NCBI GenBank assembly: GCA_964618995.1
Contig: CAZUBQ010000002.1
Coordinates: 25,352-89,351 of the forward strand
Source: an uncultured Candidatus Poseidoniales archaeon
GTDB lineage: Archaea; Thermoplasmatota; Poseidoniia; Poseidoniales; Thalassarchaeaceae
Length of the DNA: 64,000 bases
Direction: 5' to 3'
Under the pieces are notes generated by a model, which saw only the letters and a list, made by a program, of their open reading frames with translations, did not search any database and was not told the origin of the DNA. Below are positions 23,979-40,200 of the stretch, in pieces; within the stretch, counting starts at the first letter, position 1; each line of letters starts with the position of its first letter. The position numbers and the translations under genes were made by a program.

Positions 23979-24806
23979 GTGCCCGAAGCGCTCGCGATGA
24001 CCCTACAACTGACCCATCTCGGAACAGGCAGCCGTGGCAACGCCACCTTGCTATGCTCTGAAGAGGCAAACATACTGCTGGACTGCGGATTCTCAGGCAA
24101 GGAGTTGGAACGTAGACTAGCCTTGCTCGAACTGAAGCCGGAAGACCTGGATGCGATCGCCGTGAGCCACCACCACAACGACCACTCCAAGGGGGCACTA
24201 ATCGCCAACCGTCGCTGGGGCATTCCTCTGCACATGAACTTCGATACCTGCGCCCGGCTTGGGCTTGACCCGGTCAACGACTGCACCCTGTTCGAAGCAT
24301 TGGGACGCGTCGAATTCGCCGACGACTTGTCGCTGCTGCCAGTACCTGTGGAACACGGAGATGCGGACAATGTCGGATTCATCGTCAGCCATCGTGGAGA
24401 GAGAGCTGCGGTGGTGACGGACCTCGGTTCATGGTCAACCGAATTGGTGCGTCACCTCGGCCAATGCACGCACATTTCGCTCGAGGCGAACTACGACCAC
24501 GGGCGCCTGTTGGGCGGCCCCTATCCTGACCGCTTGAAACAGCGTATCATGGGTCGCGGCGGACACCTGTCTAACGAGCAGGCGGCCGATCTGCTCTCTG
24601 AAGTCTGCGGCCCCGCCACGAGAAGTATCGTACTCTGTCATCTCTCAGAGCAGAACAACCAGCCACACCTCGCCGAGAGCGAGGTTCTGATGAACATAGA
24701 CAACCAGTTCGATGGGGATCTGTCCATCAGTCTGCAGTCAGGACCGGAATTCAGCCACTACCTGGGTCAGGTAGAGCCAGAACGACTCTCGAGTGCGCAT
24801 ATCTGA
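23979..24806 (+). CDS. MBL-fold metallo-hydrolase (metallo-beta-lactamase superfamily)
   Basis: AVSHHHNDHSKG (the HxHxDH zinc motif), plus downstream His and Asp ligands. ~270 aa. Confidence 0.75.
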   Translation: MPEALAMTLQLTHLGTGSRGNATLLCSEEANILLDCGFSGKELERRLALLELKPEDLDAIAVSHHHNDHSKGALIANRRWGIPLHMNFDTCARLGLDPVNDCTLFEALGRVEFADDLSLLPVPVEHGDADNVGFIVSHRGERAAVVTDLGSWSTELVRHLGQCTHISLEANYDHGRLLGGPYPDRLKQRIMGRGGHLSNEQAADLLSEVCGPATRSIVLCHLSEQNNQPHLAESEVLMNIDNQFDGDLSISLQSGPEFSHYLGQVEPERLSSAHI

Positions 24807-24858: not shown

Positions 24859-25902
24859 GTGGGGAACGTGCGCCAGCGGAGCGGCTCTCTCGCCCGTCGA
24901 GATGTTGGCGGTGTCAGCGAGATTCTCGGCGTGACGATGCTGCTGGCGATGGTCGTAACCGTGCTAGGAGCTGTGTTCGTGCTGCTCGCGCCATTGGTGA
25001 ACGACATCAACGACAATAGAGAGTGGGCAGCGGGCAGCGTGGCTGCCACTCAATTGAATGACAGAATCTTGGTCGTGGCTGATTCACCTGCAGGAACCGG
25101 CGTCGTGCATCACAGCGCGCAACTCGCCAATACAATCGACTGGCTTCCAAGGGCGGAAACTTGGACGATTGCTGCCGATCTGGCCGGAACTGACCGGGTG
25201 ACCGTACAACTGGACCCGGGCGAGGTAAATGTCACCAGTTTGAACCGCACCGCCAGCAACGTGACAGTTGTCACCGAGACTGCTACTTACCAATTCGACC
25301 TCGTGAACGGAACGGGAAACCTCAGCATCGGCAGCGCCATGCACGGGAAGGTCAGCGTGGAGGTGAAAGACATTCATGGGAGCACGATTCACCGCCTAGT
25401 GCGCATCTCCATCGACGGCATTCGCCTGAACAACCAGATGAGCGGGGGTGTATTCAGCGTGGATCTCGTGAATGGGGCGCGCATAGAGAAACTCCCCGGG
25501 CAGGGTATCGAAGTGCAGCAGTATCCGCGGCTGCGACATGATGTCCTCATCGACGGGACTCATCGCGTCAGTCTGGTACTGCTCAACATCGATGTCGGCG
25601 AAACCCTGACGCGGCACATGACCACTGTGAACCTCGGTTCGCTTGGAACCGAGGCGCTGTTCGAGGCTCAGTCGCGCAATCTCCTGCTGAAGTCTGAGTT
25701 CGTTACTGAAGCGACCATCGGCGCACGCTACACCCATCACTGGGCTGGAGACCACGATCTGTGGCTGGCCAGCGGACAGATAGACGACTACAATGGATTC
25801 GGCCCCCGCCAGCGCCTCTCTGGGCTCGATGGGCTGACACTGTTCCCTGCCGACGAGACGTTCACCCTTGAGGTCACGTTGCAGAAGGTGGTGGTGAGTT
25901 GA
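24859..25902 (+). CDS. protein with an archaeal type-IV-pilin/FlaF-FlaG-like N-terminal domain (class III signal-like)
   Basis: N-terminus RRDVGGVSEILGVTMLLAMVVTVLGAVFVLLA resembles the (K/R)G-VSEVIG-hydrophobic motif of archaeal pilin-like proteins. The rest is a beta-rich, Asn/Thr/Val-rich ectodomain. Confidence 0.55.
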   Translation: MGNVRQRSGSLARRDVGGVSEILGVTMLLAMVVTVLGAVFVLLAPLVNDINDNREWAAGSVAATQLNDRILVVADSPAGTGVVHHSAQLANTIDWLPRAETWTIAADLAGTDRVTVQLDPGEVNVTSLNRTASNVTVVTETATYQFDLVNGTGNLSIGSAMHGKVSVEVKDIHGSTIHRLVRISIDGIRLNNQMSGGVFSVDLVNGARIEKLPGQGIEVQQYPRLRHDVLIDGTHRVSLVLLNIDVGETLTRHMTTVNLGSLGTEALFEAQSRNLLLKSEFVTEATIGARYTHHWAGDHDLWLASGQIDDYNGFGPRQRLSGLDGLTLFPADETFTLEVTLQKVVVS

Positions 25903-28148
25903 TGCGTCGACGTATGGATGACGAAGCGGTCTCGGCAGCCATCGCGACCGTGCTGCTGTTCGCTGGTACGCTGGCCATCATTTCAGGAATGATGGTGACG
26001 ATCACTCCGATGGTCGACGAGATGCACGGCGCGGTCGAGCGCCAAGCGATGTCGAGCCAGATGACCGATCTGGCCTTGGAGACAGTGCGCCTGTCCGAGA
26101 CGGGGCTTCCGGGCGATTCCGCCACAGTCCAGTTGCGGCCACACACAGGGGAGTTGAACTGGGACCTGAAACACGGTGGGACCTGGTACTCAGCGAGCCA
26201 TGTCGAAGGCGGAACCCTTCGTCTGGATGGAGTACTGGATCTAGACGATCGAGCGCGCTTCCGCTATCCCACAAGCGAGGTTTCCTCAATCTGCTTCGAT
26301 GACCTGCGAGGAGGCCCGGGGGCCTTGTGGCAAGTGCGTCTGCCCGACATCGATGGGACGTGGGCAGCAACTCCCGTATCGACCTTGGAACTGCCTTTGG
26401 CGAGTACCAGTTTGAACATAGATAACGAGGGGGTCGAGACAGATGTCCGTCTCCCGTACGGGGTGTCATTGACTGGGAGTCTGTCCGCTGGAGGTGGTGA
26501 CACATGGTTACACGCCGATGGCCCCGTCAGAGTCCTTGCTTGGATGGGAGATGGAGGTGCTGCGCTCATCGCACCCGATCTGGCCGCACCGGCTGACGGC
26601 ACGGGACGTGGCTGGACGCTTCCCGTACCACCAGGTTCCGTCACTGCTCATCTTGTGACGGCACGACCTGCGAGCATCGAATGGACCATCGGCGAACAAT
26701 CCGGTAGTGGGGTAACTAGCGGGAGTACGGCTGCATGGAGTAACACCTGGCCTACAGGTTCAGGAGACGTACTCATGCTGCGCAGCAGCGCACCGGGACG
26801 ACTACTGCTGCAATGGGGGTCTGATGCCGCCGAATCCGGTTCGGCTGCTGGCTCGACCATGTGGCCGGATGATACAGGTTCTTTCGTCGGACGTAACTTC
26901 AGCCTACCAGCAGCGAGCGGCAGCCTGTTGCTGGAGAACTCTGCCACCCAGCCCGTCACAGCCAGCATCCACGGACTGTTTCACATGGTTCCCGCTCAGG
27001 GTCAGTTGCGTGTCGGCTGGACGAGCGGTAGCGGAGACATCACTGTGAGCGGCCCGGTGCAGTTGCACTGGCTCGCGGATGCGACCGGAGCACATGCCTG
27101 GCGTCCCGGAAGCCTCGACCTCGTGCGCGCTCTCGACACCGGTCAGACCAGCGGACTAGAGCATCGTATCGGAGTGCCAGTCAGCAACGGTGACATCGAC
27201 CTGTTGCTACAACCAGCCGCGCCTCAGACCCGAGTACGCCTGCTTACCAGCCTCTCTTCTGGGGAGGAATATGACGTACTGCTCAACCATACAGGCAGCA
27301 CACATACCGCCAGCCTTGCTGCCGGCGCATCGGGACTCGTGCGCATCGAAGTGAACAACAGCGACGCATTCCCTGACATGCCGATTCGCGTCTACGCCTC
27401 AAGTGGTACTGATGGATTAATCGAGGTACGCTCGGACGGCGAGGGTCGTTGCCTCCATCTGGGAGTCCGCGCGTCGGGTTGGATTGACGTAGATCTCCCT
27501 TGGAGCGATGTCAGTAAACTCGGAGACCGAGGGCTCAGGACAGCATGGGCTGATGGCACCCACATGCTGGGATTCGCTCTCAAGGTACGCGGCCCCCTAG
27601 GTGATTCCCCACACTCGGTTCTCGCTTCGGCATGGGGAGTTCATCTCCCACGGCTGAACTACGAGTTCAAAAGCAGCGTCAGCGGGATGGAGATCGGCTT
27701 CCGCGGTGGGTTCGTAGGTACCAACCATCCCGAATTTCACGCTGATGTAATCGTCCCGCCACCTTCGCGCGAAGGGCCGGGACCGCGTCTCGCAGTGACC
27801 ATGCAGATGACCATGCCAACGGCTGATTCAGCCCTTGGCAGCAGCGTGGTTGAACTTGAGTTCAACCTCGACAAGCGTGATCAGCTCACCTCCACCAAGG
27901 CATGGGAGATACGCAGAGGGTGGGACGGCCCCTATGGACCGGCAATCGCTGCAGACGCCTCTGAAGATCTCGCATTCTCGGATGATTGGCTCACCTTCCC
28001 TGGCCAACTCGACCTGCTCGACGACCATGTCGGTTGGGTGCAACTGGTTCCTTCAAGTTCCGAATCGATCTACCACGCTGGCGGGAAGCAGATCCTGTTC
28101 AACCTGCAACTAGCTCAGATTACATCGTCGATGGTGGTGGTCGTTTGA
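25899..28148 (+). CDS. large (749 aa) protein with a pilin-like N-terminal hydrophobic domain; candidate tip or minor-pilin-like adhesin
   Basis: N-terminus DDEAVSAAIATVLLFAGTLAIISGMMV. Its start overlaps the previous stop by 4 nt (operon-like coupling). Long Gly/Ser/Thr-rich beta region. Confidence 0.55.
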   Translation: MMRRRMDDEAVSAAIATVLLFAGTLAIISGMMVTITPMVDEMHGAVERQAMSSQMTDLALETVRLSETGLPGDSATVQLRPHTGELNWDLKHGGTWYSASHVEGGTLRLDGVLDLDDRARFRYPTSEVSSICFDDLRGGPGALWQVRLPDIDGTWAATPVSTLELPLASTSLNIDNEGVETDVRLPYGVSLTGSLSAGGGDTWLHADGPVRVLAWMGDGGAALIAPDLAAPADGTGRGWTLPVPPGSVTAHLVTARPASIEWTIGEQSGSGVTSGSTAAWSNTWPTGSGDVLMLRSSAPGRLLLQWGSDAAESGSAAGSTMWPDDTGSFVGRNFSLPAASGSLLLENSATQPVTASIHGLFHMVPAQGQLRVGWTSGSGDITVSGPVQLHWLADATGAHAWRPGSLDLVRALDTGQTSGLEHRIGVPVSNGDIDLLLQPAAPQTRVRLLTSLSSGEEYDVLLNHTGSTHTASLAAGASGLVRIEVNNSDAFPDMPIRVYASSGTDGLIEVRSDGEGRCLHLGVRASGWIDVDLPWSDVSKLGDRGLRTAWADGTHMLGFALKVRGPLGDSPHSVLASAWGVHLPRLNYEFKSSVSGMEIGFRGGFVGTNHPEFHADVIVPPPSREGPGPRLAVTMQMTMPTADSALGSSVVELEFNLDKRDQLTSTKAWEIRRGWDGPYGPAIAADASEDLAFSDDWLTFPGQLDLLDDHVGWVQLVPSSSESIYHAGGKQILFNLQLAQITSSMVVVV

Positions 28149-28633
28149 GAACAGATGATCTCGAGCAGGCGTCAATTCGCAGGGACGAGGCGGCGGCGGC
28201 GACTGAACTAGGATACGTGTTCACATTCCTTCTGGGACTGCTGTTCCTCTCGATGTTCAGCGTCTGGACCTGGGACCTCGAATCCTCGCGACAGAAGTCA
28301 TGGACGGCGGAGGCGATGGACCAGAACCTCGACGCAGTGGCTGCTGCAGTGGAACGGGCTGATTCGGCGAGTCACCTCGGGGATGACGTCACTTACGCGG
28401 AACCAGTGCCTCTGCTGCTCTCTCAGGCGACCCGGCTGGAACTCAGGATGCTCCTCGATGACGAGGGGCTGCTGCTGCAAGATGGGAGTCGAGAGTACAC
28501 TTCGCGCAGACCCATCAGCGCGGGGGCTGCGACCAATCACACTGGAGAGGTGTCCTTGAATGGAATCGATACCGTCTGGGTGGTGCTCCACGACGGAGAA
28601 GTGCGACTACAGGTTTCCCAACCGGGCATCTAG
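28145..28633 (+). CDS. small pilin-like N-terminal domain protein (start uncertain; the track's start at 27986 overlaps the previous gene by 160 nt)
   Basis: DEAAAATELGYVFTFLLGLLFLSMFSVW hydrophobic N-domain just after the previous stop. A TTG at ~28145 overlaps the TGA stop (TTGA coupling). Confidence 0.4.
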   Translation: MRTDDLEQASIRRDEAAAATELGYVFTFLLGLLFLSMFSVWTWDLESSRQKSWTAEAMDQNLDAVAAAVERADSASHLGDDVTYAEPVPLLLSQATRLELRMLLDDEGLLLQDGSREYTSRRPISAGAATNHTGEVSLNGIDTVWVVLHDGEVRLQVSQPGI

Positions 28634-28648
28634 GCTACAAGGAAGTCC

Positions 28649-31198
28649 TCACTCACCCATGAGCGCTCGGTGCACCTTCGCTTGCACATCGCGCATACGG
28701 TCCTGGGCGCCGAGTTCCTGGAAGACTGTGAGTGAACGCTGCAGGTATTCCATTCGATGTTCCCTATCCCGTGCGGCTTCTCCTAGACGGGCGAGCAACT
28801 CGCCGATGAGTACTCTGTAGTCGTTTGATTCTGCGAGAGCGAGAGCTTCTCGATACTGTTCAAGAGCCTCGTCCTGTCGACCTGCGTCGACGAGCACCTC
28901 CCCAAGCAGCAACTTGATCTCGACTGCGGAGTGCTGGTCAGCCTCCTCGCTCATCTGCTCGAGTGCCTCAGAGTAGTGGAGCAGTGCCAGTTCTGGATCA
29001 CCGCTGCGAGCGTAGAAGCGGCCGAGTACTGCCCTAGCGCGCGCATGGAGCGACTTGTCCCCTGTGGCAAGAGTCTCGTCGTGAGCCACCATCGCGTGCT
29101 CACGAGCGCGATCGAGTTCGTCCATCTCAAGCAACGATGCAGCCAACTTGATGCGCGCGGCGGCGAACGAAGGATCCTTCTCTGAACCCAACAGAACTTC
29201 GACGTTCTCGCATGTCTCCAGAGCACGCTTCAAATCCTTCTGACGCCTGTAGATGTAGCCCATGTTGTTGTACGTCCGCGCCGCTCCAAGTGCATCATCC
29301 AGTTCGATGAACTGCACCAGAGCGTCACGATGCATTTCGAGTGCTGTGTCTATGTCTCCACGCATCATGTTGATGTCCGCTTGGCTGGAGTAGATGCGCG
29401 CGGTCGCCAACTTGCCGTCATCGCTCTTGTCAAGCAACTCCAGCGCCTCGGAGTAGAGTGCGCCCGCTTCTTCCCATCTACCTTGGATTGAGAGGATGTC
29501 ACCGCGCAGTTCCAGTACCACAGCCCACGCTGAATCCTCAACATCGCTCTTTTCGACAACGTCGAGGATTCCCAGCAGTTCCATGTGACCTGATGCCACC
29601 AAGGCGCGACCAGTGGTTGCTATCTCGGCACCCAACTCCTCACTGTCTCCGGTGTAGCGCAGATGGTAGAGGAATTCGATATTCTGCGATGGTTCCCGTC
29701 GGTGGTTTCGGTACCATTCTACAGCCGCCGCGTGCAGGTCTCGACGTGTCTGATCGTCATGAGAACGTGATAGGAACTCGCGGACCAGATCGTGTACGTC
29801 GTAATTCTCAGTGTCCGCTTGCCGTGCCAGCCCCTTGTCAACCAGATCGTCAAGTAGGTCTGTCTCCAATTCCTGCATTGTCAATGCCTCCAACGGCATT
29901 GGTTCGCGGAACACGGCCAACGCCCCCAGAAGACGCTTCTCTCCACCGGAGAGCTTGCTGAAAATCTCCTGCTCGACATACGTCTCAAGAGTCTCGTGGA
30001 AAGTGGCGCCAATCGACCCACGGTTGATCAGTTCCAATACCAAGGGGTGACCGCGTGACAGACCGTAGATGTGCATGTAGGTGACCTCGTCCATGTCAGG
30101 AAGTGCGGTCAGCAATTCCCGTGAAGATTCTCGATCCAGCCCTTCCAAGTGAACGACCAGCGTCATGATGTTCCCCTCGGCGTCAGTCAGAGGCATCACT
30201 GGGCGGAACGAACGAGAGAACAGCACGATTCCGACATCATCCATCTCTTCCATCCTCTGCGAGAGGCCACGGATTACTGAGAACAGCACCTCGTCGCCCA
30301 ATTTGTGCAGGTCGTCGATGACAATCAGCGCCGAAGTGTTCGCGAGTCCTCCGACTATCAGGTTGACTGACATAGGGGCCGAGGGGACCGGCGTCGTGGA
30401 CAGATAGTCAGACAATCCGTCATCACCAATGGCTGACAGCCAATCCGAGGCCACCTCGAGGAACGAACGCGCGCCCTCCCAGTCCTGCACTCGGTGGTAG
30501 AGCAGGTTTCTCTTGTGGGTGAACCTCTCGACCAGTTTGGCGGCCAATGAGGTCTTGCCGATGCCCGCTATTCCGGGCACAAGAATAGTGGTGGAGCGAG
30601 CATCGAGGAGGTCAACCATGGTCTTCAACTCGGCATCACGCCCCACGAAATGACGCATCCTGGGAAGGTCGCCGAGCACGGTCACCAACTGCTTCTCTAC
30701 GTGCTTCGACAGATCCCTTTCAATCAAGTCGGGAGTCAAATTGCGCATATCCAGCACGCCGTTGTCATCTAGATAGCGTAGCACGTCGGTGGGCCTGATT
30801 GCGAACGGAGACTGCTCGACGGAGCCGGCGAGGGTAGTGGATTCAGTCGAGCCATCTTGGACGATTAGGCGTACAGGGTGTTCAGCCAGCCGCTCCCATG
30901 TCTCCTCAGCCAGTTTCATTCCGGATTCAGTGAGGAAGTAGGCCTTCCGTTTGCGGGTCACTCCAGATACGTGTGCCTGCCTCTCGATGAGCAGATTCTG
31001 GTCCTTCAGTCCAGCGATGGCGCGCGGGACGTTGCTGCGAGCGATGGCGACAGCGTTAGCGATGCCCATCTGTGACAGAGAGAACGGTACCTCGACCTTG
31101 TCGGAGTAATCGGCGTAGTCCCACAAGTGGAGCAGGATGCGCTCCTGCACCCCCGGCTTCACCTGCACCATTTCATTCACCTCGTCCGAGTTCATCAC
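28649..31198 (-). CDS. STAND-class signal-transduction NTPase: N-terminal winged-HTH DNA-binding domain, NB-ARC-like P-loop NTPase and C-terminal TPR array
   Basis: wHTH (…LSQMGIANAVAIARSNVPRAIAGLKDQNLL…). Walker A GIAGIGKT, Walker B LIVIDDLH, and a GHPLVLEL motif (the GxP/'GLPL' motif of NB-ARC). Multiple C-terminal TPR-like repeats (…AARTYNNMGYIYRRQKDLKRALE…). Confidence 0.75.
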   Translation of the reverse strand: MMNSDEVNEMVQVKPGVQERILLHLWDYADYSDKVEVPFSLSQMGIANAVAIARSNVPRAIAGLKDQNLLIERQAHVSGVTRKRKAYFLTESGMKLAEETWERLAEHPVRLIVQDGSTESTTLAGSVEQSPFAIRPTDVLRYLDDNGVLDMRNLTPDLIERDLSKHVEKQLVTVLGDLPRMRHFVGRDAELKTMVDLLDARSTTILVPGIAGIGKTSLAAKLVERFTHKRNLLYHRVQDWEGARSFLEVASDWLSAIGDDGLSDYLSTTPVPSAPMSVNLIVGGLANTSALIVIDDLHKLGDEVLFSVIRGLSQRMEEMDDVGIVLFSRSFRPVMPLTDAEGNIMTLVVHLEGLDRESSRELLTALPDMDEVTYMHIYGLSRGHPLVLELINRGSIGATFHETLETYVEQEIFSKLSGGEKRLLGALAVFREPMPLEALTMQELETDLLDDLVDKGLARQADTENYDVHDLVREFLSRSHDDQTRRDLHAAAVEWYRNHRREPSQNIEFLYHLRYTGDSEELGAEIATTGRALVASGHMELLGILDVVEKSDVEDSAWAVVLELRGDILSIQGRWEEAGALYSEALELLDKSDDGKLATARIYSSQADINMMRGDIDTALEMHRDALVQFIELDDALGAARTYNNMGYIYRRQKDLKRALETCENVEVLLGSEKDPSFAAARIKLAASLLEMDELDRAREHAMVAHDETLATGDKSLHARARAVLGRFYARSGDPELALLHYSEALEQMSEEADQHSAVEIKLLLGEVLVDAGRQDEALEQYREALALAESNDYRVLIGELLARLGEAARDREHRMEYLQRSLTVFQELGAQDRMRDVQAKVHRALMGE

Positions 31199-31229
31199 CG
31201 GTTAGCAATCAATGTGCGCACGGCACCGT

Positions 31230-34200
31230 TCACTGCTGGGGTGGGCCACCTGACTGGTCTGGAATCCATTGGTTACTTGCCGCATCCCACTGCCATCCAG
31301 GATAGGCCGGTTGCGCTGCTGGCTCTGCTGCTGGCTGTGCTGCAGCATGTGCCGCTGGTTGAGCAGCAGCCTGTTCCTGCGGCGCCTGCTTGCCCCACGC
31401 GTATACGTCCTCATCCTCTTGGGACTCCTCAGACATCAGTAGCGACTCGTCGTCCACCTCTTCGAACTCGACGAAGAAGAACACGAACACACCGCCGAGC
31501 AGAGCGACGATGACCACCAAGAGTAGCGCCCAGAGGATCCAACCGAATTTGCTCCCATCATCCGCGTCACCTACCTGGATGCTGTAGCTCGTTTCGGTCA
31601 TACGCTCATTGTCATAGTCGAACACCACGATGTTGCTGCCTCTCTCCAACTTGGATGCGGGCACGTCGATGGTCCAACTGCCATTTTCGGAGATTTGCGC
31701 ACTGCCTAGACGCATTGCGTTCAACCCAGAGCGCGCGACCACCTCAACGCCGGGTCTGCCGGTGCCAGCGAACGTGACTGTACCATCGACGTCGATGTTT
31801 CCGCTGCCAACTCGCTGGACACTGAAACTCACCGCGTTCACCACGAAATCGACTTCGAGCGAGTACGCCTTGCTGTTGTGTGGATCCTTGGCGAGGAACT
31901 TCATCCCCGAGCAGGACCATTCGGCCATGTCGGGTGAATAGAACGACATCGCAACCGGGTTGTAGGTCGCTTTGCCATTGACGTCTATCTGGATTTGCTC
32001 TGCACACTGGTCGTCATCGTACGTTTGCGGGTCATCCCACACCTCAATGCTCAGATCCTCGCCCTCAGGATCGTAGAACCAACCCGCGAGTTCGACACTG
32101 GCTCCATCACCACAGCGATCCGGAGCCTGACTGTTCTCTTCACAGAAGATGACGTGCGTGCGCTGCCAACTCTGCTCCTGAGTCACCGAGGAGCCGTCGA
32201 GCAAATCGACCGTCTCTCCCTCGGCGAGATATATTGGAGCGAGATTGTTGGCATCGGGTGGGTTATCGATGATAATCTCCCTCTGAACCCAATCACTGTA
32301 CAGTTGTCCGTCCTTGGAGCGCGCCTGCACGAGATAGTGGAAATCGTGCACCAGCCTGGAGGTGTCCCAAGTAGTCGACCATGCGCCGTTGGGAGCGATG
32401 GTGGTGATAACGGAATGAGGTCCAGGGGGGCGCTCATTCATGGCGTCCTGCGGATCAAGTATCCTGATCTCGACCTTGGAAACGTCACCATCCGTGTCGC
32501 GGGCGACGCCGGAGATGATCGTGTCCGGTCCGGCACGAACGACCTGCATGTCATAGGGTTCAATCAACGTGATGAGCGGGGGTGCATTCGTATTGTCGAT
32601 ATCGAGGGTGAGCTCAACCGGAGTACACTCACCAATCACCCCGCGGCAGAACGATGAGTCGGACGCCCAGATGCGGAACATCCAATCTGTACGCACTTTC
32701 GGCATCCCGGAGAAGTTCCAGTCCCACGACCAAATCGGCCCTCCTACCACTGGGACCGTTGTCGTGTTGAATACAGATGAACTGATTTCGAAGTGGATCT
32801 GATCGATGTCACTACCATAGACGCCGTTGTACGGGTCACTGGCTGTGCCGCTGAAGGTGACGATGCCCGAATCGAACAGCGAACCGTCCGTCGGCGTTAC
32901 CACGTGGATGACTGGGGCCACCGTGTTGAGTCTGATTGTTCGCGTCACGACTGGACTGTAGTCGACACCATCCCAGGCGCGGAACTCGAAGGTGTAGTCG
33001 TTCTCTGGTTCCAGTGACATGTCATACTCGAAGTGCCAGATGCGGAATGGCCTGTTATCACTGGTCACTTCACCGTTCGCGTTGCTGTCGTCCACCGCGT
33101 AACGGGTGTCATTCCACGAACTGGATGCGGGCGTCTTAATCTCGATGCGCTCGATAGCACCCTTCTGCTCCCAGCGCGCCTGCTCGTCGGAGTTGAATAT
33201 CCCTGTGCCGATGTTTCCATCCCAACCCGAGCCAGTGAAGTTCACCTGACGCTTGAAAGAATGTCCGTCGAGTTGGGTGACAGTGACTGTGGGAGCCATA
33301 TTGTCGAGGGAAATGACCTGGTCCAAGGTCCCTGTCAGGTTGAACCAGTGCTTCTCGTATCCCTTGCCGAACTTGTATGTGGTCACGTAGTACTTCGACA
33401 ACTCACGCGTCGCCGACCCCTGCTGGCAATCTGGGTCATCCGAGTCGTAAAGCAAATCTCCGTCGTTGTCGATTCCGTCGCTGCAAGAATTCTCACCCGG
33501 ATCCCCTGCGAAGTCGTTGGGGTTGTCACCATTGCCTCTGATGTCAAGATGGAAGTCCGAGGGGAGTGCCACCCACGGCGTGAAACCGAACGGATCGGTG
33601 TCCATATCGTACATGTCGTTGCCGTGCGCATCTTCCAGCAACACCGTCGCACCTCCGACGCGCACACCGTTGACGGTGGCACGGAAGCGCACCAGTTCTG
33701 CCCTCCTCAGTTGAACCGACCACGTGCCGGCAGCTTGGGCGATATGTGCTTTGGAGAGGTCGAAGTTCGTCAGGTTGGCGAAAGTCAACACCGTCGAGTT
33801 GTTCACCAGTTCGAGTGACAACGGGAAGTTGCGAGGCGGAATGATCTGAGTAGGGGCGAGGTCGAGTTTGTTGCCCCAACCGTTGTTCGGATCGGCGTCT
33901 GCACTAATCCAACGGAGTTCCATCGGATAAGTCGTGGACGAAGTCGGATTAGGAATCAACTCAGACTGAACCGTCACCGAACTCTCTGAGATGTTGTACA
34001 CCTGCGATACGTTGTTCCAAGTGTTACCCGAGAAAAAGGCGAGCGAACCGTATTGTGGACCGCTCGGCACATCGTGCTGAACGACTCGTGCGCCCACTCC
34101 TGCAGCAGTGAACGAGTTGTCCTGGACGTCGATGATAGCTCCAATCGCTCTGATGGCATCACCCTGAGCGTTGTTCACAGTGTTGCGATGGATGCTGACA

Positions 34201-35630
34201 CTGGAGCGGAACAGGTGGAACACAGGGCAGGTGAATTCACTGTCCCACACCTTCTCACTCTGACACGTGCCGCTCACGTTACTGAAGGTGTTGTCCGCGA
34301 ACCATCCCCGAGCAGGCTGTGGACCAGACACAGTCCAGCCCTGGTCCCCGAAGTGGTACTCGCCGAGAATGACCGGTTCGCGGTTGATGTCCTGGAATGT
34401 GTTGTTGTCAGCGATGATGTCAACATAGCCGACACCCCAGATTCCATTGTAGCCACCAATCGGGCCGATGATGTTGCGGCTGAACTTGACCTCTGCCAAT
34501 TCCGGGTAGTTTGACACGACCTGGATTCCAGACCCATCATCAGCACCCTCCATCACGTTGTCCTCGAAGGTCACCAGAGCGCCGTCATAGGCGGTGAGCG
34601 GTGAGTTGTCTGCGGTTGAAATGCTGTTATGGTTAGCAAACAGTTCGTAGTCGTAGCCAAGAATCGTTCGCCTTCCATTGACATCGATTCCTGTGCAATC
34701 AGTCTGGAGCGTGTTGCTTGATATCGTTCCCGCGGAATCAGTGTAGCGATAACCGTAGTCCGCGCTGGCAACCACACCGTGGTCGATGTTCAGGAACGAC
34801 TTCTGCGCCCAGACGACGTGGCGGCCGTTGTCCTGTGAACTACATCCAGAGGATGTGCCAGAGAACACGGGGCTGTCAAGAGTCACCGGGTTGTTTGGCG
34901 TGCCCGCGCCGTAAGCCTGGATGGCCTGTCCAAGCAGAGACTCGACGCGCTCCTCGCTGCCGACGGTGAACGTACCACCGACGAAATGTGGTGAGGCAAG
35001 ATCGAGGATGAGCACACTTGAGGTGTTGATATCCTCAAACAACAGCCCTGTCGATGTCGGGCTGGCACCATCGAAGACCAGCGCGCCGTAGCGCACCTCG
35101 CTGATGTCAGTGGCGAAGCGGGGGATTCCATACGCATTCTTGATCTCAAGGTGATTCAACTTGGTCTGCTGCACATCGATGGTATCCCTGATTAGGATGC
35201 CTTCGTAGCAAGAGGGGTCCGCGTTGTAGAGCGGCTGGCCGTTGGACGGGTTGTTCAGCCAGTAGCAGTTTCCGCGGGCCGACCAGTTGCTCGGATCGCT
35301 CCAAGTGAATGTGGCCTTGCTCGAGTTGCTCCCCATGCCATTTGCGCCACAGCCAGTGTCCGCCGCGCATAAGTTGCCCCTTACGTGTAGGAACGTACCG
35401 TTCGCCATGGTGACCGTAGTCCCGGGCTGGATGATCAGTTTCGCCCCGGGCGCCACCTCCACGTTACCGGTGACCGTGTGTGACCCCTGCCATATCTCGG
35501 TTCCAGATATGACTCCGCTCTGGGTTTCATTCGAAGCGACGGCGGTCGGCAGAGCCAACAACAGCGCGCTCAGCGAGGTGAGCACCATGAGGCTCACCAG
35601 CGTGAAACTCTTCATTCGATTGTCATTCAT
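31230..35630 (-). CDS. giant (about 1470 aa) surface protein with right-handed parallel beta-helix (PbH1) repeats, Ig-like/CARDB-like domains, one C-terminal TM and a Gln/Ala/Pro-rich cytoplasmic tail; probable start MNDNRMKSF, or MKSF at ~35615
   Basis: Signal peptide MKSFTLVSLMVLTSLSALLLALPTAVAS. Repeated N-x-x-x-G-x-A-I motifs typical of pectate-lyase-fold repeats. A DGIDNDGD calcium-type loop. TM ILWALLLVVIVALLGGVFVFFFV. Tail with AAAQPAAHAAAQPAAEPAAQPA and YPGWQWD...NQW. Confidence 0.8.
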   Translation of the reverse strand: MNDNRMKSFTLVSLMVLTSLSALLLALPTAVASNETQSGVISGTEIWQGSHTVTGNVEVAPGAKLIIQPGTTVTMANGTFLHVRGNLCAADTGCGANGMGSNSSKATFTWSDPSNWSARGNCYWLNNPSNGQPLYNADPSCYEGILIRDTIDVQQTKLNHLEIKNAYGIPRFATDISEVRYGALVFDGASPTSTGLLFEDINTSSVLILDLASPHFVGGTFTVGSEERVESLLGQAIQAYGAGTPNNPVTLDSPVFSGTSSGCSSQDNGRHVVWAQKSFLNIDHGVVASADYGYRYTDSAGTISSNTLQTDCTGIDVNGRRTILGYDYELFANHNSISTADNSPLTAYDGALVTFEDNVMEGADDGSGIQVVSNYPELAEVKFSRNIIGPIGGYNGIWGVGYVDIIADNNTFQDINREPVILGEYHFGDQGWTVSGPQPARGWFADNTFSNVSGTCQSEKVWDSEFTCPVFHLFRSSVSIHRNTVNNAQGDAIRAIGAIIDVQDNSFTAAGVGARVVQHDVPSGPQYGSLAFFSGNTWNNVSQVYNISESSVTVQSELIPNPTSSTTYPMELRWISADADPNNGWGNKLDLAPTQIIPPRNFPLSLELVNNSTVLTFANLTNFDLSKAHIAQAAGTWSVQLRRAELVRFRATVNGVRVGGATVLLEDAHGNDMYDMDTDPFGFTPWVALPSDFHLDIRGNGDNPNDFAGDPGENSCSDGIDNDGDLLYDSDDPDCQQGSATRELSKYYVTTYKFGKGYEKHWFNLTGTLDQVISLDNMAPTVTVTQLDGHSFKRQVNFTGSGWDGNIGTGIFNSDEQARWEQKGAIERIEIKTPASSSWNDTRYAVDDSNANGEVTSDNRPFRIWHFEYDMSLEPENDYTFEFRAWDGVDYSPVVTRTIRLNTVAPVIHVVTPTDGSLFDSGIVTFSGTASDPYNGVYGSDIDQIHFEISSSVFNTTTVPVVGGPIWSWDWNFSGMPKVRTDWMFRIWASDSSFCRGVIGECTPVELTLDIDNTNAPPLITLIEPYDMQVVRAGPDTIISGVARDTDGDVSKVEIRILDPQDAMNERPPGPHSVITTIAPNGAWSTTWDTSRLVHDFHYLVQARSKDGQLYSDWVQREIIIDNPPDANNLAPIYLAEGETVDLLDGSSVTQEQSWQRTHVIFCEENSQAPDRCGDGASVELAGWFYDPEGEDLSIEVWDDPQTYDDDQCAEQIQIDVNGKATYNPVAMSFYSPDMAEWSCSGMKFLAKDPHNSKAYSLEVDFVVNAVSFSVQRVGSGNIDVDGTVTFAGTGRPGVEVVARSGLNAMRLGSAQISENGSWTIDVPASKLERGSNIVVFDYDNERMTETSYSIQVGDADDGSKFGWILWALLLVVIVALLGGVFVFFFVEFEEVDDESLLMSEESQEDEDVYAWGKQAPQEQAAAQPAAHAAAQPAAEPAAQPAYPGWQWDAASNQWIPDQSGGPPQQ
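31290..31385 (-). repeat. coding low-complexity repeat (AAQPAA x4)
   Basis: CTGCTGGCTSTGCTG-type units on the plus strand. They encode the cytoplasmic tail of the beta-helix giant. Confidence 0.6.
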
Positions 35631-35699
35631 GTTCACATACTCCTGATGTGAGCGGCCGATGGAGGGACTGAATATAAGCAAGAAGGCTCGACGCAATAG

Positions 35700-35790
35700 T
35701 ATTTGTATCAATTATCACTGTTTGTATCAATATTTTCTCGCTAATTTTCCTTACACTGTATCAATTTCAATGAAATGTATCAATTATTAA
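35700..35790 (-). promoter_or_regulatory. AT-rich upstream regulatory island with four direct copies of TGTATCAAT (candidate transcription-factor binding sites) upstream of the beta-helix giant gene
   Basis: Copies at ~35704, 35723, 35757 and 35776, arranged as 19-bp-spaced pairs 53 bp apart. Local GC is ~28% versus ~62% for the window. A TATA-like CTTATAT lies ~45 bp upstream of the ATG. Confidence 0.5.
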
Positions 35791-35861
35791 TATCATACCT
35801 AGGATGAAATATCAGAATTGGTCTAATGACTGGTTGGATATTACCGGAATCAGGTGTGATG

Positions 35862-37220: not shown

Positions 37221-40200
37221 TCAGAAAGGCGCGGCTCCGGTCATACCGGACCTGACTCTCCTGTAGAGGAGGAATCCTATGAGGAACATGGCGATGATGA
37301 TCATCGGAACCCATGTGTTGACGGATTCAGGAGCGGGTGTGGCGACATGGATGGTCTCCATCTCATTGGTATCTGAAGATGCATCCAGATCATCCAGTTC
37401 CGAGACGATGATGGTGAAGTTGAACTTCTGGTTCCCGATACCAACCCCTTCCAAATCGAGGAACAGCATGTAGTCGACTGTCTTACCCGCTGGAATGGCC
37501 AGATTGTCAGATTCAGTGAAGAGTTCGGGGTATTCGGGCATGTCAAGCCGTATCTTCACTTCGCGTGCATCGACAAGACCGTCGTTTTTCACGCGCACGA
37601 CGAACTGGTTGCGTGAGCCTGTGATCGCATCTCCTCCGCTGAAGGTGTCGATGTCCTCAAATGACAACAGTGGCCGAGCCGCCTTGACCTCTATGGAGAT
37701 CGGCGGGTAACTGGTGTTGTCCTCACTGCTGATATTCAGATGCAGCTCAAAGGATTCATCGCCTGCGTCCGCGGGTGCGAACACGGTGAACGAGTAGGTG
37801 CGCGCCTCACCGCTGTTGTACGGGGACTCCTGCGGCCCGGTTGCGCTCCATCCCTCTGGCAGCCAAGTCGTGTCAATCTCAAACTGGATGGTGTCATGAC
37901 CGTTTCCTGCATTCTCAATCAAGAACTCCACTCGTTGCTCATCACCGGGATAGACCCCTGTTGTACCCTCAGGCTGCTCGAGCACGTTCACCTGGTAGGT
38001 CTGTGGAATGCGGACCGTCAACACATGCTCGCTGGAGGAGCCGTCAGTATGAGTCAGTCTGAGCGTGATTCTGTGACCATCATCCAATGAAGTGGAATTA
38101 CTGAGGTTCGCCGGTTGGACACGCATGGTGAGGTCGAGGGTGCCCGCGCTGTCCAAGCCAAGTTGAATCTTCTGCTCCTCCACCCATTGGATAGTACCAT
38201 TGGCATCGGTGCCATTGTGGAACTCGACCGACCAGTACTCGATGTCCTCGGCGGAGAAGACGGTCGTGACGTTATACTCGTCAAGTGCCTCATTGCCTGT
38301 GTAATCAATCTCGATTGTGAACTCGATCACCTCGAACACATTGCTCTCGTTCGATTCCACGACATCGACGTCGTTGTTCATCTCCTCGTGCTGAGTTGCC
38401 CCAGTGACCGAGGTGACATTGAACTGAACTCCGTGGTTAAGGTGGCGATTGAAGCGCAGGGTGTTGACCGGCGTCTCCTGTTCGGAGGCGATATCGATCG
38501 AAAGGCCGGCGCTGTAGGTCATGTTCAGCCCGTGTTCAAACGTCTGGAATTCACTCTCGAGGAACAATGTCCCCTCGGGTAGCAACAGGTCTACGTTGCC
38601 TTCGGAATCGACACCGACCACCCATTTGCGGTTGTCTCCCATATCAAAATCGATGGACGGTGTATCGAGCATCTCAGCACCCGGTACATTCGAGTCTCCG
38701 AGGTGATGGTTTTCGCCCTCGAAGTCAATCCATGAGGTGGCGATGTGCAGGATGCCGCCTGGCTCCAGCGTCAGGTTCACCTCCGCGCCTTCGTGCACGC
38801 TTGCATCCACGAGAATCACACCGACCACGCCGGCGGCTTCGTTTGTGGCAATCAACACCCATTCTCCGGGTTCGACATCCGCACTCCACGAGCCGTTCCA
38901 GTCACCCCCGTTATCGAGTAGTTTTTCGGGTGTGTGGGAATCTCTCTCGATTCCAGTGTGCGGTACGAGCTGAAGAACAACGCCTCCAGAGATATCGTCC
39001 CACACCTCCATCTGCACGTAATCTATCAGGCCCACCACAGTGACGTTTCCTGCCAGCAATTCCAAATCGGTCGAGTTCGAAGTCTCGGCGATGACGATTG
39101 TGGTGTTTACAGGGGCGAATCCGATACGGGTTGCTTCGATGGTGTAGTTGCCGAGAACGGGTACGAACAATTGCCATGTTCCGAGTTCGCTGCTGGTCAA
39201 GTTGACGTCCTCTGGCAGGCCGCCTCCGCTGACGCTGATGTTCGCACCTTCGACGCCTTCACCCTGATCGTATTCACCGTCGTCATCGAGATCCCAGAAC
39301 AGATTCCCGCCGAGGGTGACCCAATGCTCCAAGATTATCGAACTGTTGTCCGGTGTCTGTTCTCCGTCGCTGAGTTCAGCCAAGGTCTGTGATTCGAGTA
39401 GCCAACGCTCCTGAGAGAACGTAGCGTTCAGGGACAGCGACCACGTCCCTGGCCATATGTAGGCGTCGAGCACGCCATCCGAGTTGGTCGCGGGCAGCGT
39501 TATGTTACCCAGACCATCCTCGCTGTGGGCGATTAACTCGAACCCGGTCATATTCTCCCCGCTACCCTCCTCGAAGAAGGATATCAGCAGATGAGCAGAT
39601 TCCTTAGTACGCCAAGAGATTCCATCGAGGCTGGCGTTGCCGTCGATGACTAGCAGGCCACGGAACTCCTCATGTGTCACGCCGGTGTTGAATCGCTCAA
39701 CAGTGACTATCCACTCGCCTTCGGGAAGATAGTCGAGCAGGGTACCGTTCTCGTCTGTGAAGCGAATGAACTCGATTTCGCCGTCTACAGATTCAAAGTT
39801 CACCTGTCGCTCTGCCACCGCTCCGCTGGAGAAATTGGTCAGTTCAGCGTTCACCCGCCACATGGGCAAGAAGGGCATCTCAACTACCTCGCTCACGTTG
39901 TTCACGCCAAGTGCCAGCACGATGTTTTCTGCGGCCGCCAACTGGGTGTCGTAGGCGCTGCCGTTGGTGGCATTCTGCGGCTCTACGGCAATCGTGTAGA
40001 CACCAGGTTCCACGTTCACGGTGATGCGACCATCGGTGAACTCGGCGGAGGTGACGTTCAGGCCAATCCCCAGACCACCCGCTGAAATCGGTACGAAAGC
40101 CAGGTCGATGTCGATGAGCGTGCCGTTGCTGACGTTCGCATCACCCTCATGGTCGATGAAGGCGGTGATGTCGACGGTGATGTTGTCCGGTTGCGCCATC

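Follow-up and report, generated by a model that had tools for sequence, protein, structure and literature searches.

PH0952 of Pyrococcus horikoshii (PDB 6MFV), a STAND protein, reportedly had its structure solved only as a proxy for that of MalT of Escherichia coli, and to our knowledge neither inducer nor operator nor regulon is known for any archaeal STAND transcription factor. In the working model of MalT, an inducer and the exchange of ADP for ATP lead to an oligomer that binds cooperatively to asymmetric direct repeats upstream of the promoter. The MalT-dependent promoters pulAp and malPp800 have four MalT sites each, which are bound cooperatively by the oligomer. The PH0952 clade has been published as a group of predicted archaeal transcription factors that is sister to APAF-1/NB-ARC (PMC6468293), and the N-terminal domain of PH0952, which was deleted from the crystal, was termed 'ArsR-like' (Lisa et al. 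2019, PMC6468293).

The gene described here lies in a 64-kb stretch of DNA (the window, to which all positions refer) from a Marine Group II (MGII) archaeon (Poseidoniales, Thalassarchaeaceae-type), and encodes a STAND protein of this already described archaeal family. Marine Group II archaea are uncultured, and hypotheses on regulators and their targets must therefore come from comparative genomics; our literature searches turned up no study of this gene or cluster from MGII. The best explanation overall, which we consider moderately likely, is a STAND transcription factor of the PH0952 clade, with a box array before the neighboring surface-protein gene as its most likely target.

Domain organization and family placement

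The gene is encoded on the minus strand, which the original prediction had left unstated, and the three motifs that it named, GIAGIGKT, LIVIDDLH and GHPLVLEL, are each located in the protein. The predicted length of 849 aa holds for codons counted from the first GTG; however, the sequence indicates that the true start is probably the ATG at codon 10 (window 31171), giving 840 aa, since this ATG is preceded by GAGGTGA and the orthologues are 838-842 aa long. The protein consists of a winged helix-turn-helix (wHTH), a small linker subdomain, an NBD-HD-WHD nucleotide switch, a helical arm and ~8 TPRs, and no signal peptide or membrane segment could be read from its sequence. The switch, made up of a nucleotide-binding domain (NBD), a helical domain (HD) and a winged-helix domain (WHD), is the nucleotide-binding oligomerization domain (NOD) of the STAND class. 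The gene and its parts are as follows.

28649..31198, minus strand: STAND regulator ORF (849 codons with the GTG as start)
30884..31150, minus strand: MarR/PadR-type wHTH, aa 17-105 (AF2 and Foldseek)
30704..30883, minus strand: beta-beta-alpha-alpha-beta-alpha subdomain between wHTH and NOD, aa 106-165 (structure models)
30164..30649, minus strand: NBD, aa 184-345 (AAA_16 match at E=1.2e-9 and conserved columns)
aa 184-190, minus strand: FxGRxxE motif of the NBD
30551-30574, minus strand: Walker A GIAGIGKT, aa 209-216
30305-30328, minus strand: Walker B LIVIDDLH, aa 291-298
R329: sensor-1 arginine of the NBD
29954..30163, minus strand: NOD helical domain, aa 346-415 (sequence columns and model)
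30029-30052, minus strand: GxP motif GHPLVLEL in the NOD helical domain, aa 383-390
29759..29953, minus strand: NOD winged-helix domain, aa 416-480 (sequence columns and model)
29549..29758, minus strand: helical arm as defined in PH0952, the least conserved part of the protein
28652..29548, minus strand: TPR sensor of 16 helices and ~8 repeats, aa 551-849 (Pfam and model)

The full-length AF2 model has a pLDDT of 85.8, and its NBD-HD-WHD layout (pLDDT ~85) superposes on 6mfv. The AF2 models and the Pfam TPR matches, namely TPR_12 (E=1.2e-27) and TPR_MalT (E=1.4e-12, 48 bits, above the 45-bit cut-off), agree with the predicted order of wHTH, NOD and TPR in a STAND protein. The NTPase possesses a Walker A, a Walker B of the hhhhDD form, an hhGRxxE strand-helix and a sensor-1 arginine, and is followed at its C-terminal side by an HD with the GxP motif and a WHD with the ADP-contacting histidine. 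In 48 sequences, F184, G186, R187, E190, D295, R329, G383, P385 and H469 are invariant, as are G209, G212, G214, K215 and T216 of Walker A; for D296 and H384, conservation is at least 90%. The invariant His469, which sits in the stretch YDVHDLVREF of the winged-helix domain, is the MHD-like histidine, the kind that contacts ADP.

The N-terminal domain models confidently as a wHTH, with a pLDDT of 88.4 and a pTM of 0.82. Foldseek revealed MepR, Pex, MexR, ZitR and PadR as the best matches of this model, and the top neighbors are all DNA-binding MarR/PadR regulators, some of which were solved with DNA. As modelled, the domain is by fold a DNA-binding-type winged helix, in agreement with the winged-HTH that had been predicted; it has the recognition helix RSNVPRAIAGLK (aa 54-65), a wing containing RKRKAYFLT (aa 82-90) and a C-terminal helix (aa 91-105). 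In Pfam, the N-terminus matches HTH_Crp_2 and PadR, both below threshold. The wHTH is the most conserved domain of the protein, with 73-86% identity within MGII and 38% in 30%-identical relatives; within the whole protein, conservation is highest in its basic wing and recognition helix.

Searching the PDB sequences with phmmer gave PH0952 (6mfv) as the best match (E=6e-28, aa 178-498). A 15-sequence NOD profile matched PH0952 at 5.4e-51, followed by Roq1 (1.5e-8) and APAF-1 (2.6e-5), with no MalT chain among its best 60 matches, and the top Foldseek match of the full-length model was 6mfv_A (E=2e-20 over 676 columns). Along its whole length the NOD has PH0952 as its nearest match, the N-terminal winged helix is of the DNA-binding type by fold, and a helical arm leads to a C-terminal TPR sensor; we conclude that this is very probably a PH0952-type STAND protein with a DNA-binding-type head. 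At E<1e-30 it matches 441 clusters (50% identity), nearly all of which align from aa ~17 to ~520. The relatives come from Thermoplasmata, Methanomassiliicoccales and Thorarchaeota, and beyond one 60%-identity cluster the next ones are at most 36% identical.

Among the family labels originally proposed, STAND is retained, whereas NB-ARC and AfsR/SARP are not, since the NOD belongs to the PH0952 clade and the head is MarR/PadR-type. In the HMM searches, the TPRs were significant, whereas the wHTH families stayed below threshold and NB-ARC (PF00931) below its cut-off (E=0.089, 12.5 bits compared to 23.5). The isolated NOD gave only a sub-threshold match to the P-loop (aa 22-49 of the NOD fragment), and we keep the term 'sister clade' instead of NB-ARC, a kinship that shows up with the NOD profile alone. 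Nor is GHPLVLEL, which had been read as the NB-ARC-diagnostic 'GLPL' motif, diagnostic of that family, because PH0952 carries the same GHPL. An AfsR/SARP identity was rejected for a protein that lacks the OmpR-type Trans_reg_C and the BTAD, neither of which Pfam detected in the N-terminus even with a limit of E<=10, and that has a MarR/PadR-like fold; AfsR matches came via the TPRs and the P-loop only, and the NCBIfam AfsR model reached 36 bits, over the TPR region only, compared to a cut-off of 1430 bits. Membership in the MalT family was rejected likewise: the C-terminus consists of TPRs without a GerE match, and the NCBIfam MalT model scored 40.9 bits compared to 537, with the TPR_MalT region alone matching.

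Conserved gene order and the TGATAY array

The pilin-like operon and the beta-helix giant had both been correctly named as neighbors of the STAND gene. The elements around it are as follows.

24859-28633, plus strand: pilin-like trio (DUF7289 / 749 aa / DUF7266), convergent to the STAND gene
31199..31216, minus strand: block CACATTGATTGCTAACCG, conserved, within the 31 nt between the beta-helix and STAND genes (subclade comparison)
31230..35630, minus strand: secreted Big_7/beta-helix protein of 1466 aa (ATG 35630), directly upstream of the STAND gene
35672..35677, minus strand: TATA-like TTATAT of the beta-helix promoter, ~27 nt downstream of the proximal box
35704..35814, minus strand: candidate operator array of four ATTGATACA boxes and two distal TGATAT, on the sense strand
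35704-12, 35723-31, 35757-65 and 35776-84, minus strand: the ATTGATACA boxes, exact copies

The beta-helix gene has an AGGAG 11 nt upstream of its ATG at 35630, and an alternative start of its ORF at 35711 gives 1493 aa. Big_7 is the only significant Pfam match of its product, which has no match among the PDB sequences; the orthologues carry Beta_helix (PF13229). The 849-codon STAND ORF starts 31 nt after this gene, and the block CACATTGATTGCTAACCG in the spacer could, as a sequence element, be the promoter element of the STAND gene itself. A related ACATTSWWKR block is found at the same place in all subclades. The presence of a conserved block in a spacer of 31-70 nt suggests that a separate promoter may drive the STAND gene, and the idea of autoregulation is weakened by this.

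On the same strand, an STT3/AglB giant, an S8 subtilase, the beta-helix surface protein and the STAND protein are encoded in this order, which is identical in all 36 Poseidoniales loci wherever the contig reaches. The STAND gene is the best-conserved member of the cluster (59-62% identity, compared to 28-38% for the STT3 giant) and also holds a fixed position beside purD. Within a single archaeal lineage, vertical inheritance can account for synteny even where the genes have no functional link. Nine contexts of distant homologues divide into three beside giant PKD/Big_9/FG-GAP proteins, three beside DUF835 and three with unrelated genes, so that a family-wide link to surface proteins is suggestive only and was set aside.

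The sequence TGTATCAAT occurs in four exact copies at 35704, 35723, 35757 and 35776, and these were the only copies in 64 kb with up to one mismatch allowed. The TGTATCAAT island pointed out by the original prediction is a real cis-element, a four-box array conserved before the beta-helix gene, and the only AT-rich island within the 64-kb window. The four exact boxes are asymmetric direct repeats on the sense strand, with their centers at ~-60 to -132 relative to the transcription start, which is expected at about 35648. Comparison of 15 non-redundant loci revealed a fixed TGATAY spacing of 19-20/34-35/19-20 bp and a fixed distance from box 4 to the TATA-like element, which is conserved as TTATAAC/TTATATT. 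Each array contains 4-6 sense and 0 antisense TGATAY boxes compared to 0.1-0.25 expected, and none of 2000 shuffles reached the observed box count in any of 18 non-redundant loci. In one locus (L003), a box pair is inverted in orientation.

The beta-helix gene (31230..35630) is the presumed target of the STAND protein, and the four-box array before this neighboring surface-protein gene its most likely binding target, although binding of the protein to the TGATAY array is put forward tentatively. No paired TGATAY boxes were found elsewhere in each ~22-kb locus or in the 64-kb window. The protein had been proposed as the prime candidate for a master regulator of the surface island; the array, however, precedes the beta-helix gene alone, and none lies before the genes of the pilin trio, of the STT3 giant or of the protein of 1915 aa. 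As TGATAY pairs and clusters occur at this one promoter only, in the window and in all loci searched, control of those other genes finds no support and a whole-island regulator was rejected. The arrangement suggests a MalT-like local activator rather than a master regulator.

In the 60%-identity subclade, 10 non-redundant loci, which are high in GC and of Thalassarchaeum type, lack the array and have a hairpin plus a CCCTATGATTAAATCC element in its place. The STAND gene is intact in these genomes and its recognition helix is nearly identical, so the conserved job of the protein cannot depend on the array alone. A STAND transcription factor with its targets elsewhere would fit these loci, the array being the operator of an unlinked regulator and the adjacency an inherited gene order; it would also fit the many unrelated contexts of distant homologues and a box search that covers ~22 kb per genome. 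We consider this explanation rather unlikely, given that the gene order with respect to the beta-helix gene does not vary in any locus where the contig reaches, that four asymmetric direct repeats suit a multimerizing activator better than a dimeric wHTH repressor, and that 3/9 distant homologues adjoin giant PKD/Big_9/FG-GAP surface proteins.

Role of the STAND protein and a possible mechanism

The protein is likely to act as a transcription factor. Winged helices can also mediate protein contacts, and a non-transcriptional STAND hub is conceivable in which the wHTH serves as an adaptor for protein or RNA and the oligomer scaffolds surface-protein assembly, glycosylation or processing. The Pfam HTH matches below threshold would agree with such a hub, and the 60-aa subdomain beside the wHTH could be the adaptor. 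However, every top structural neighbor is a bona fide DNA-binding regulator, conservation peaks in the basic wing RKRKAYFLT and the recognition helix, and there is no signal peptide or membrane segment to reach secreted partners, which together make the hub improbable.

An Avs-like antiviral STAND NTPase, whose TPRs would recognize a viral protein and whose N-terminus would be a toxic effector, had already been disfavored in the original prediction and is highly improbable and largely refuted: Avs3 and Avs4 are among the structural matches (E~1e-10 to 1e-7) because of the shared STAND core and TPRs, but PADLOC returned no significant family, the N-terminus is a small wHTH with no nuclease, protease, TIR or SIR2 domain in the protein, neither an Avs-like cassette nor an effector was found, and the most conserved gene of a vertically inherited, syntenic cluster, fixed near purD among housekeeping-type surface genes, is the opposite of fast-evolving, patchy defense genes.

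For a transcription factor acting on the array, a mechanism may be drawn from those of PH0952 and MalT, by analogy with which we infer that the protein is 'ligand-gated'. It would rest as an ADP-bound monomer, kept in a closed state by contacts of the NBD with the WHD, the arm and the TPRs, until a small molecule or protein bound by the TPRs and arm opens the NOD. ATP would then replace ADP, the protein would multimerize head to tail, and the clustered wHTH heads would bind cooperatively to the direct repeats of the array, thereby activating the promoter of the beta-helix gene. Read-through from this promoter may include the STAND gene itself.

If this holds, a conserved surface module (AglB-fusion giant, subtilase and beta-helix protein) would be switched on in planktonic archaea that rank among the most abundant in the ocean, and the TPRs might sense a substrate-derived oligomer. 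Confirmation would show how MGII control a large surface-protein gene and would extend MalT-type, oligomerization-driven activation to archaeal promoters; otherwise the STAND gene would be one more ordinary gene, if a well-conserved one, of a family that is widespread in Thermoplasmatota. It is doubtful, though conceivable, that the STAND protein forms with the TGATAY array of four boxes a regulator-operator pair, which would be the first of the PH0952 clade. The candidate pair is clonable as a protein of 840 aa and a promoter fragment of ~110 bp that contains the four boxes found by phylogenetic footprinting.

Comparison with known STAND systems

Avs3 and Avs4 have the STAND core and a TPR sensor in common with the protein, whereas Avs proteins possess an N-terminal nuclease or other effector and lie in defense islands, neither of which applies here. 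The NB-ARC proteins APAF-1, CED-4 and plant NLR form a sister clade according to Lisa et al. (PMC6468293). The alignment of the NOD family profile spans the entire NOD in Roq1 (1.5e-8) and APAF-1 (2.6e-5), the GxP motif and the MHD-like histidine are common to both groups, and relatives at 30% identity carry Pfam NB-ARC matches; however, the effectors (CARD/TIR/CC) and sensors (WD40/LRR) of APAF-1, CED-4 and NLR are unlike those of the STAND protein. AfsR and the large SARP of Streptomyces follow the same logic of an N-terminal DNA-binding domain, a STAND NTPase and C-terminal TPRs, but the OmpR-type wHTH and BTAD that define them are missing from the STAND protein.

PH0952 shares the NOD, the GHPL and VHD motifs, the arm and the TPR sensor; a winged-helix DNA-binding domain is predicted at its N-terminus, in the same position, and the overall order is equal. 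Despite this architecture, the NODs are only ~30% identical, the head of PH0952 was called 'ArsR-like' whereas that of the STAND protein finds MarR/PadR-type structural matches, and the modelled 60-aa subdomain between wHTH and NOD is extra compared to PH0952. MalT is similar by analogy, as both proteins have a TPR-like sensor and fit the STAND activator model. The two differ in that the DNA-binding domain of MalT (LuxR/GerE type) is C-terminal and acts with bacterial sigma-70, whereas the wHTH of the STAND protein is N-terminal and would act with an archaeal TBP/TFB promoter. If the proposed mechanism is true, the protein would be an archaeal, N-terminal-wHTH counterpart of MalT, whose oligomer assembles on direct repeats upstream of a TATA element.

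Domain architecture and clade of the STAND protein

The STAND gene (window 28649..31198, minus strand) is an ORF of 849 codons with a GTG start, and the plus-strand reading of this interval is stop-rich; the G+C content of the window is 58%, and its 64 kb hold no second copy of the gene. Translation probably begins at codon 10, an ATG (window 31171) preceded by GAGGTGA; the orthologues comprise 838-842 residues, with N-termini of MVQVKPG or MxxxRPGVQER. The original prediction had read the product as an AfsR-like wHTH, NB-ARC and TPR protein, and the motifs it quoted were all found (GIAGIGKT at residues 209-216, LIVIDDLH at 291-298 and GHPLVLEL at 383-390). A full-length AF2 model, built on a 48-sequence alignment (pLDDT 85.8), displays five parts, among which conservation is highest in the wHTH and lowest in the arm.

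Domains of the STAND protein in the AF2 model
aa 17-105: wHTH, with helices 17-26 and 43-50, recognition helix 54-66, wing strands 70-77 and 83-89, and helix 91-105
aa 108-164: small alpha/beta subdomain
about aa 184-480: NBD, HD and WHD, the nucleotide switch
aa 482-547: helical arm
aa 555-847: TPR region of 16 helices

The N-terminal 178 residues, modelled separately (pLDDT 88.4, pTM 0.82), fold as a winged helix, so that the original prediction withstands its own test on this point, and resemble in Foldseek MepR, Pex, MexR, ZitR, AdcR, SlyA and PadR, all of which are DNA-binding MarR/PadR-type winged-helix regulators. Pfam gave sub-threshold HTH_Crp_2 and PadR matches at the N-terminus, the generic AAA_16 for the NTPase (1.2e-9) and TPR_12 for the TPR region (E=1.2e-27), in addition to a TPR_MalT match exceeding its cut-off (E=1.4e-12). 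The three-part architecture was thus upheld, whereas the label "NB-ARC" is only approximate, as this model scored 12.5 bits (E=0.089) against a 23.5-bit cut-off and covered the P-loop only. Across the 48 sequences, which reach down to 21% identity, FxGRxxE, Walker A, Walker B D295, R329, G383, P385 and H469 are invariant, and D296 and H384 are at least 90% conserved, which indicates, as judged from sequence, a working nucleotide switch.

Among proteins of solved structure, PH0952 of Pyrococcus horikoshii (PDB 6MFV) gave the best sequence match, with an E-value of 6e-28 over residues 178-498, where the two share the GHPL and VHD motifs. Foldseek search of the PDB with the full-length model also ranked 6mfv_A first (E=2e-20, 676 columns), with weaker STAND matches to Avs3/4, CED-4 and MalT. 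A family profile of 15 NODs matched PH0952 at 5.4e-51, followed by whole-NOD NB-ARC matches to Roq1 (1.5e-8) and APAF-1 (2.6e-5); AfsR aligned over the P-loop alone, and no MalT chain appeared among the 60 matches listed. Lisa et al. (2019, PMC6468293) place APAF-1 as the sister group of the PH0952 clade and MalT in a basal position. The protein is therefore a PH0952-clade archaeal STAND protein, a probable transcription factor of a clade already described. The SARP, strict NB-ARC and Avs identities were rejected. "AfsR/SARP-like" is wrong as a family label, since the OmpR-type (Trans_reg_C) and BTAD module of AfsR/SARP was not found by Pfam in the N-terminus, and the NCBIfam AfsR match, like that of MalT, lies in the TPR region far under its cut-off. 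The exclusion of an Avs-type protein was sustained by a PADLOC scan without significant match and by a locus pattern typical of a core gene.

Close full-length homologues (59-95% identity) belong to Marine Group II (Poseidoniales, Thalassarchaeaceae, Thalassarchaeum). A library of clusters at 50% identity yielded 2271 matching clusters, 441 of them at E<1e-30; nearly all align over residues ~17 to ~520, so that the wHTH plus NOD is a widespread architecture. Relatives of ~30% identity occur in Thermoplasmata, Methanomassiliicoccales and Thorarchaeota, often several per genome, and many have recorded NB-ARC, MarR_2 or HTH_Crp_2 Pfam matches.

The conserved gene cluster

Window proteins were compared by tblastn with 40 loci (L001-L040), 36 from a Poseidoniales genome scan and four from a homologue look-up. 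Wherever the contig reaches, one strand carries an invariant order: the giant STT3/AglB-domain protein, an S8 subtilase, the beta-helix/Big_7 protein and STAND, followed on the opposite strand by a metallo-beta-lactamase-fold gene and then a ~1910-aa protein; the giant gene is itself closely preceded by purD.

Genes around the STAND gene in the window
37221-47036, minus strand: 3271-aa giant opening the cluster in all MGII loci, with an STT3/AglB oligosaccharyltransferase N-terminal domain (aa 439-777, E=5e-16) and a CarboxypepD_reg domain (aa 2591-2654)
24859-28633, plus strand: pilin-like trio of DUF7289-like 347-aa, 749-aa (no Pfam match) and DUF7266-like 215-aa proteins
23979-24806, plus strand: metallo-beta-lactamase-fold gene (Lactamase_B_2, 5.9e-15), adjoining the cluster in all loci

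No gene of the block is better conserved than STAND: between the window and the far subclade its identity is 59-62%, compared to 45-49% for the subtilase, 33-45% for the beta-helix protein and 28-38% for the giant. Fixed order and top conservation are the marks of a core gene, as opposed to a mobile defence gene. Orthologues of the metallo-beta-lactamase-fold gene have a recorded Anti-Pycsar_Apyc1 match, which probably reflects only the common fold. The pilin-like trio is an insertion between this gene and STAND, present only in the subclade of the window (STAND at least 68% identical); as listed, the ORFs of its 749-aa and 215-aa proteins have ~160 nt in common, so that one of the two has probably been given a wrong start. 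The C-terminus of the beta-helix protein (window 31230-31330, minus strand) bears the motif YPGW(K/Q)WD...N(Q/E)W(I/V)PD after an Ala/Pro/Gln-rich low-complexity stretch, and this motif is kept in all subclades despite ~43% overall identity.

Nine contexts of distant homologues divide equally among giant PKD/Big_9/FG-GAP surface proteins, DUF835 genes and unrelated genes. The surface proteins (L052 88-7575, L054 11003-16446 and L058 1-8945, the second also adjoined by two Pilin_N genes) echo the MGII neighbourhood. In the three DUF835 contexts, from Methanomassiliicoccus-like and other Thermoplasmatota, the gene immediately before wHTH-STAND-TPR encodes DUF835 (PF05763; L053 185-1130, L056 6826-7365 and L057 7342-8001, where it abuts the STAND start), a possible conserved partner within this branch.

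The TGATAY array and the spacer block

Four exact copies of TGTATCAAT, reading ATTGATACA on the gene strand, are the only matches with at most one mismatch in 64 kb, and occupy the only AT-rich island and only TGATAY cluster of the window. Relative to the expected transcription start they lie at about -60 to -132, and are followed by a TATA-like TTATAT (35677-35672), AGGAG and the beta-helix ATG at 35630. Every non-redundant locus of this subclade has 4-6 sense and no antisense boxes, compared to 0.1-0.25 expected, a count reached in none of 2000 shuffles. In 15 non-redundant loci, the 19-20/34-35/19-20 spacing and the distance from box 4 to the conserved TATA-like element are fixed while the inter-box sequence varies; by this comparison, the array is a phylogenetic footprint. 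Two far-subclade lineages retain one box pair, which in L003 is inverted and accompanied by a hairpin. In ten high-G+C loci the boxes are absent, and a conserved hairpin together with CCCTATGATTAAATCC takes their place; this hairpin, CGAGCCTACGGCTCG, then CTACCCTATGATTAAATCC, stands about 35 nt before the ATG.

Other conserved elements
S8-to-beta-helix intergenic region, e.g. L019 5475-5638: conserved hairpin (L019-L026, L028, L038, L040)
31199-31229, minus strand: 31-nt spacer between the beta-helix and STAND genes, with a block conserved in all subclades (L001-L040); window CACATTGATTGCTAACC, mid subclade ACTATTGAATGGTTGCAGG, far subclade AACATTCTTGAGTGGA

In the window and mid subclades, the spacer block and the boxes have an ATTGA core in common, in the far subclade only TTGA; the block could be the STAND gene's own promoter.

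A proposed local regulator

If it behaves like its homologues PH0952 and MalT, the resting protein would be a closed ADP-bound monomer, which inducer binding by the TPR/arm would open for ADP-to-ATP exchange and then multimerisation. Such a multimer, with several wHTH heads, would be a natural reader of an asymmetric direct-repeat array. We infer that the protein may bind the TGATAY boxes, an assignment weakened because the ten array-free loci keep an almost identical recognition helix. Activation is consistent with an array placed ahead of the TATA box, and read-through across the 31-nt gap from the beta-helix gene into STAND would give positive feedback, although the spacer block may be a separate promoter. 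The proposed role of "master regulator" of the surface island is unsupported, as no locus, nor the window, has a box pair of 19-20 bp spacing anywhere but before the beta-helix gene. The best-supported specific hypothesis, itself tentative, is a local activator of this adjacent gene. The conserved four-box array offers a concrete regulator-operator hypothesis for an uncharacterised STAND family, in archaea that are uncultured yet ecologically dominant. It parallels MalT, whose dependent promoters, such as pulAp and malPp800, have four cooperatively bound sites.
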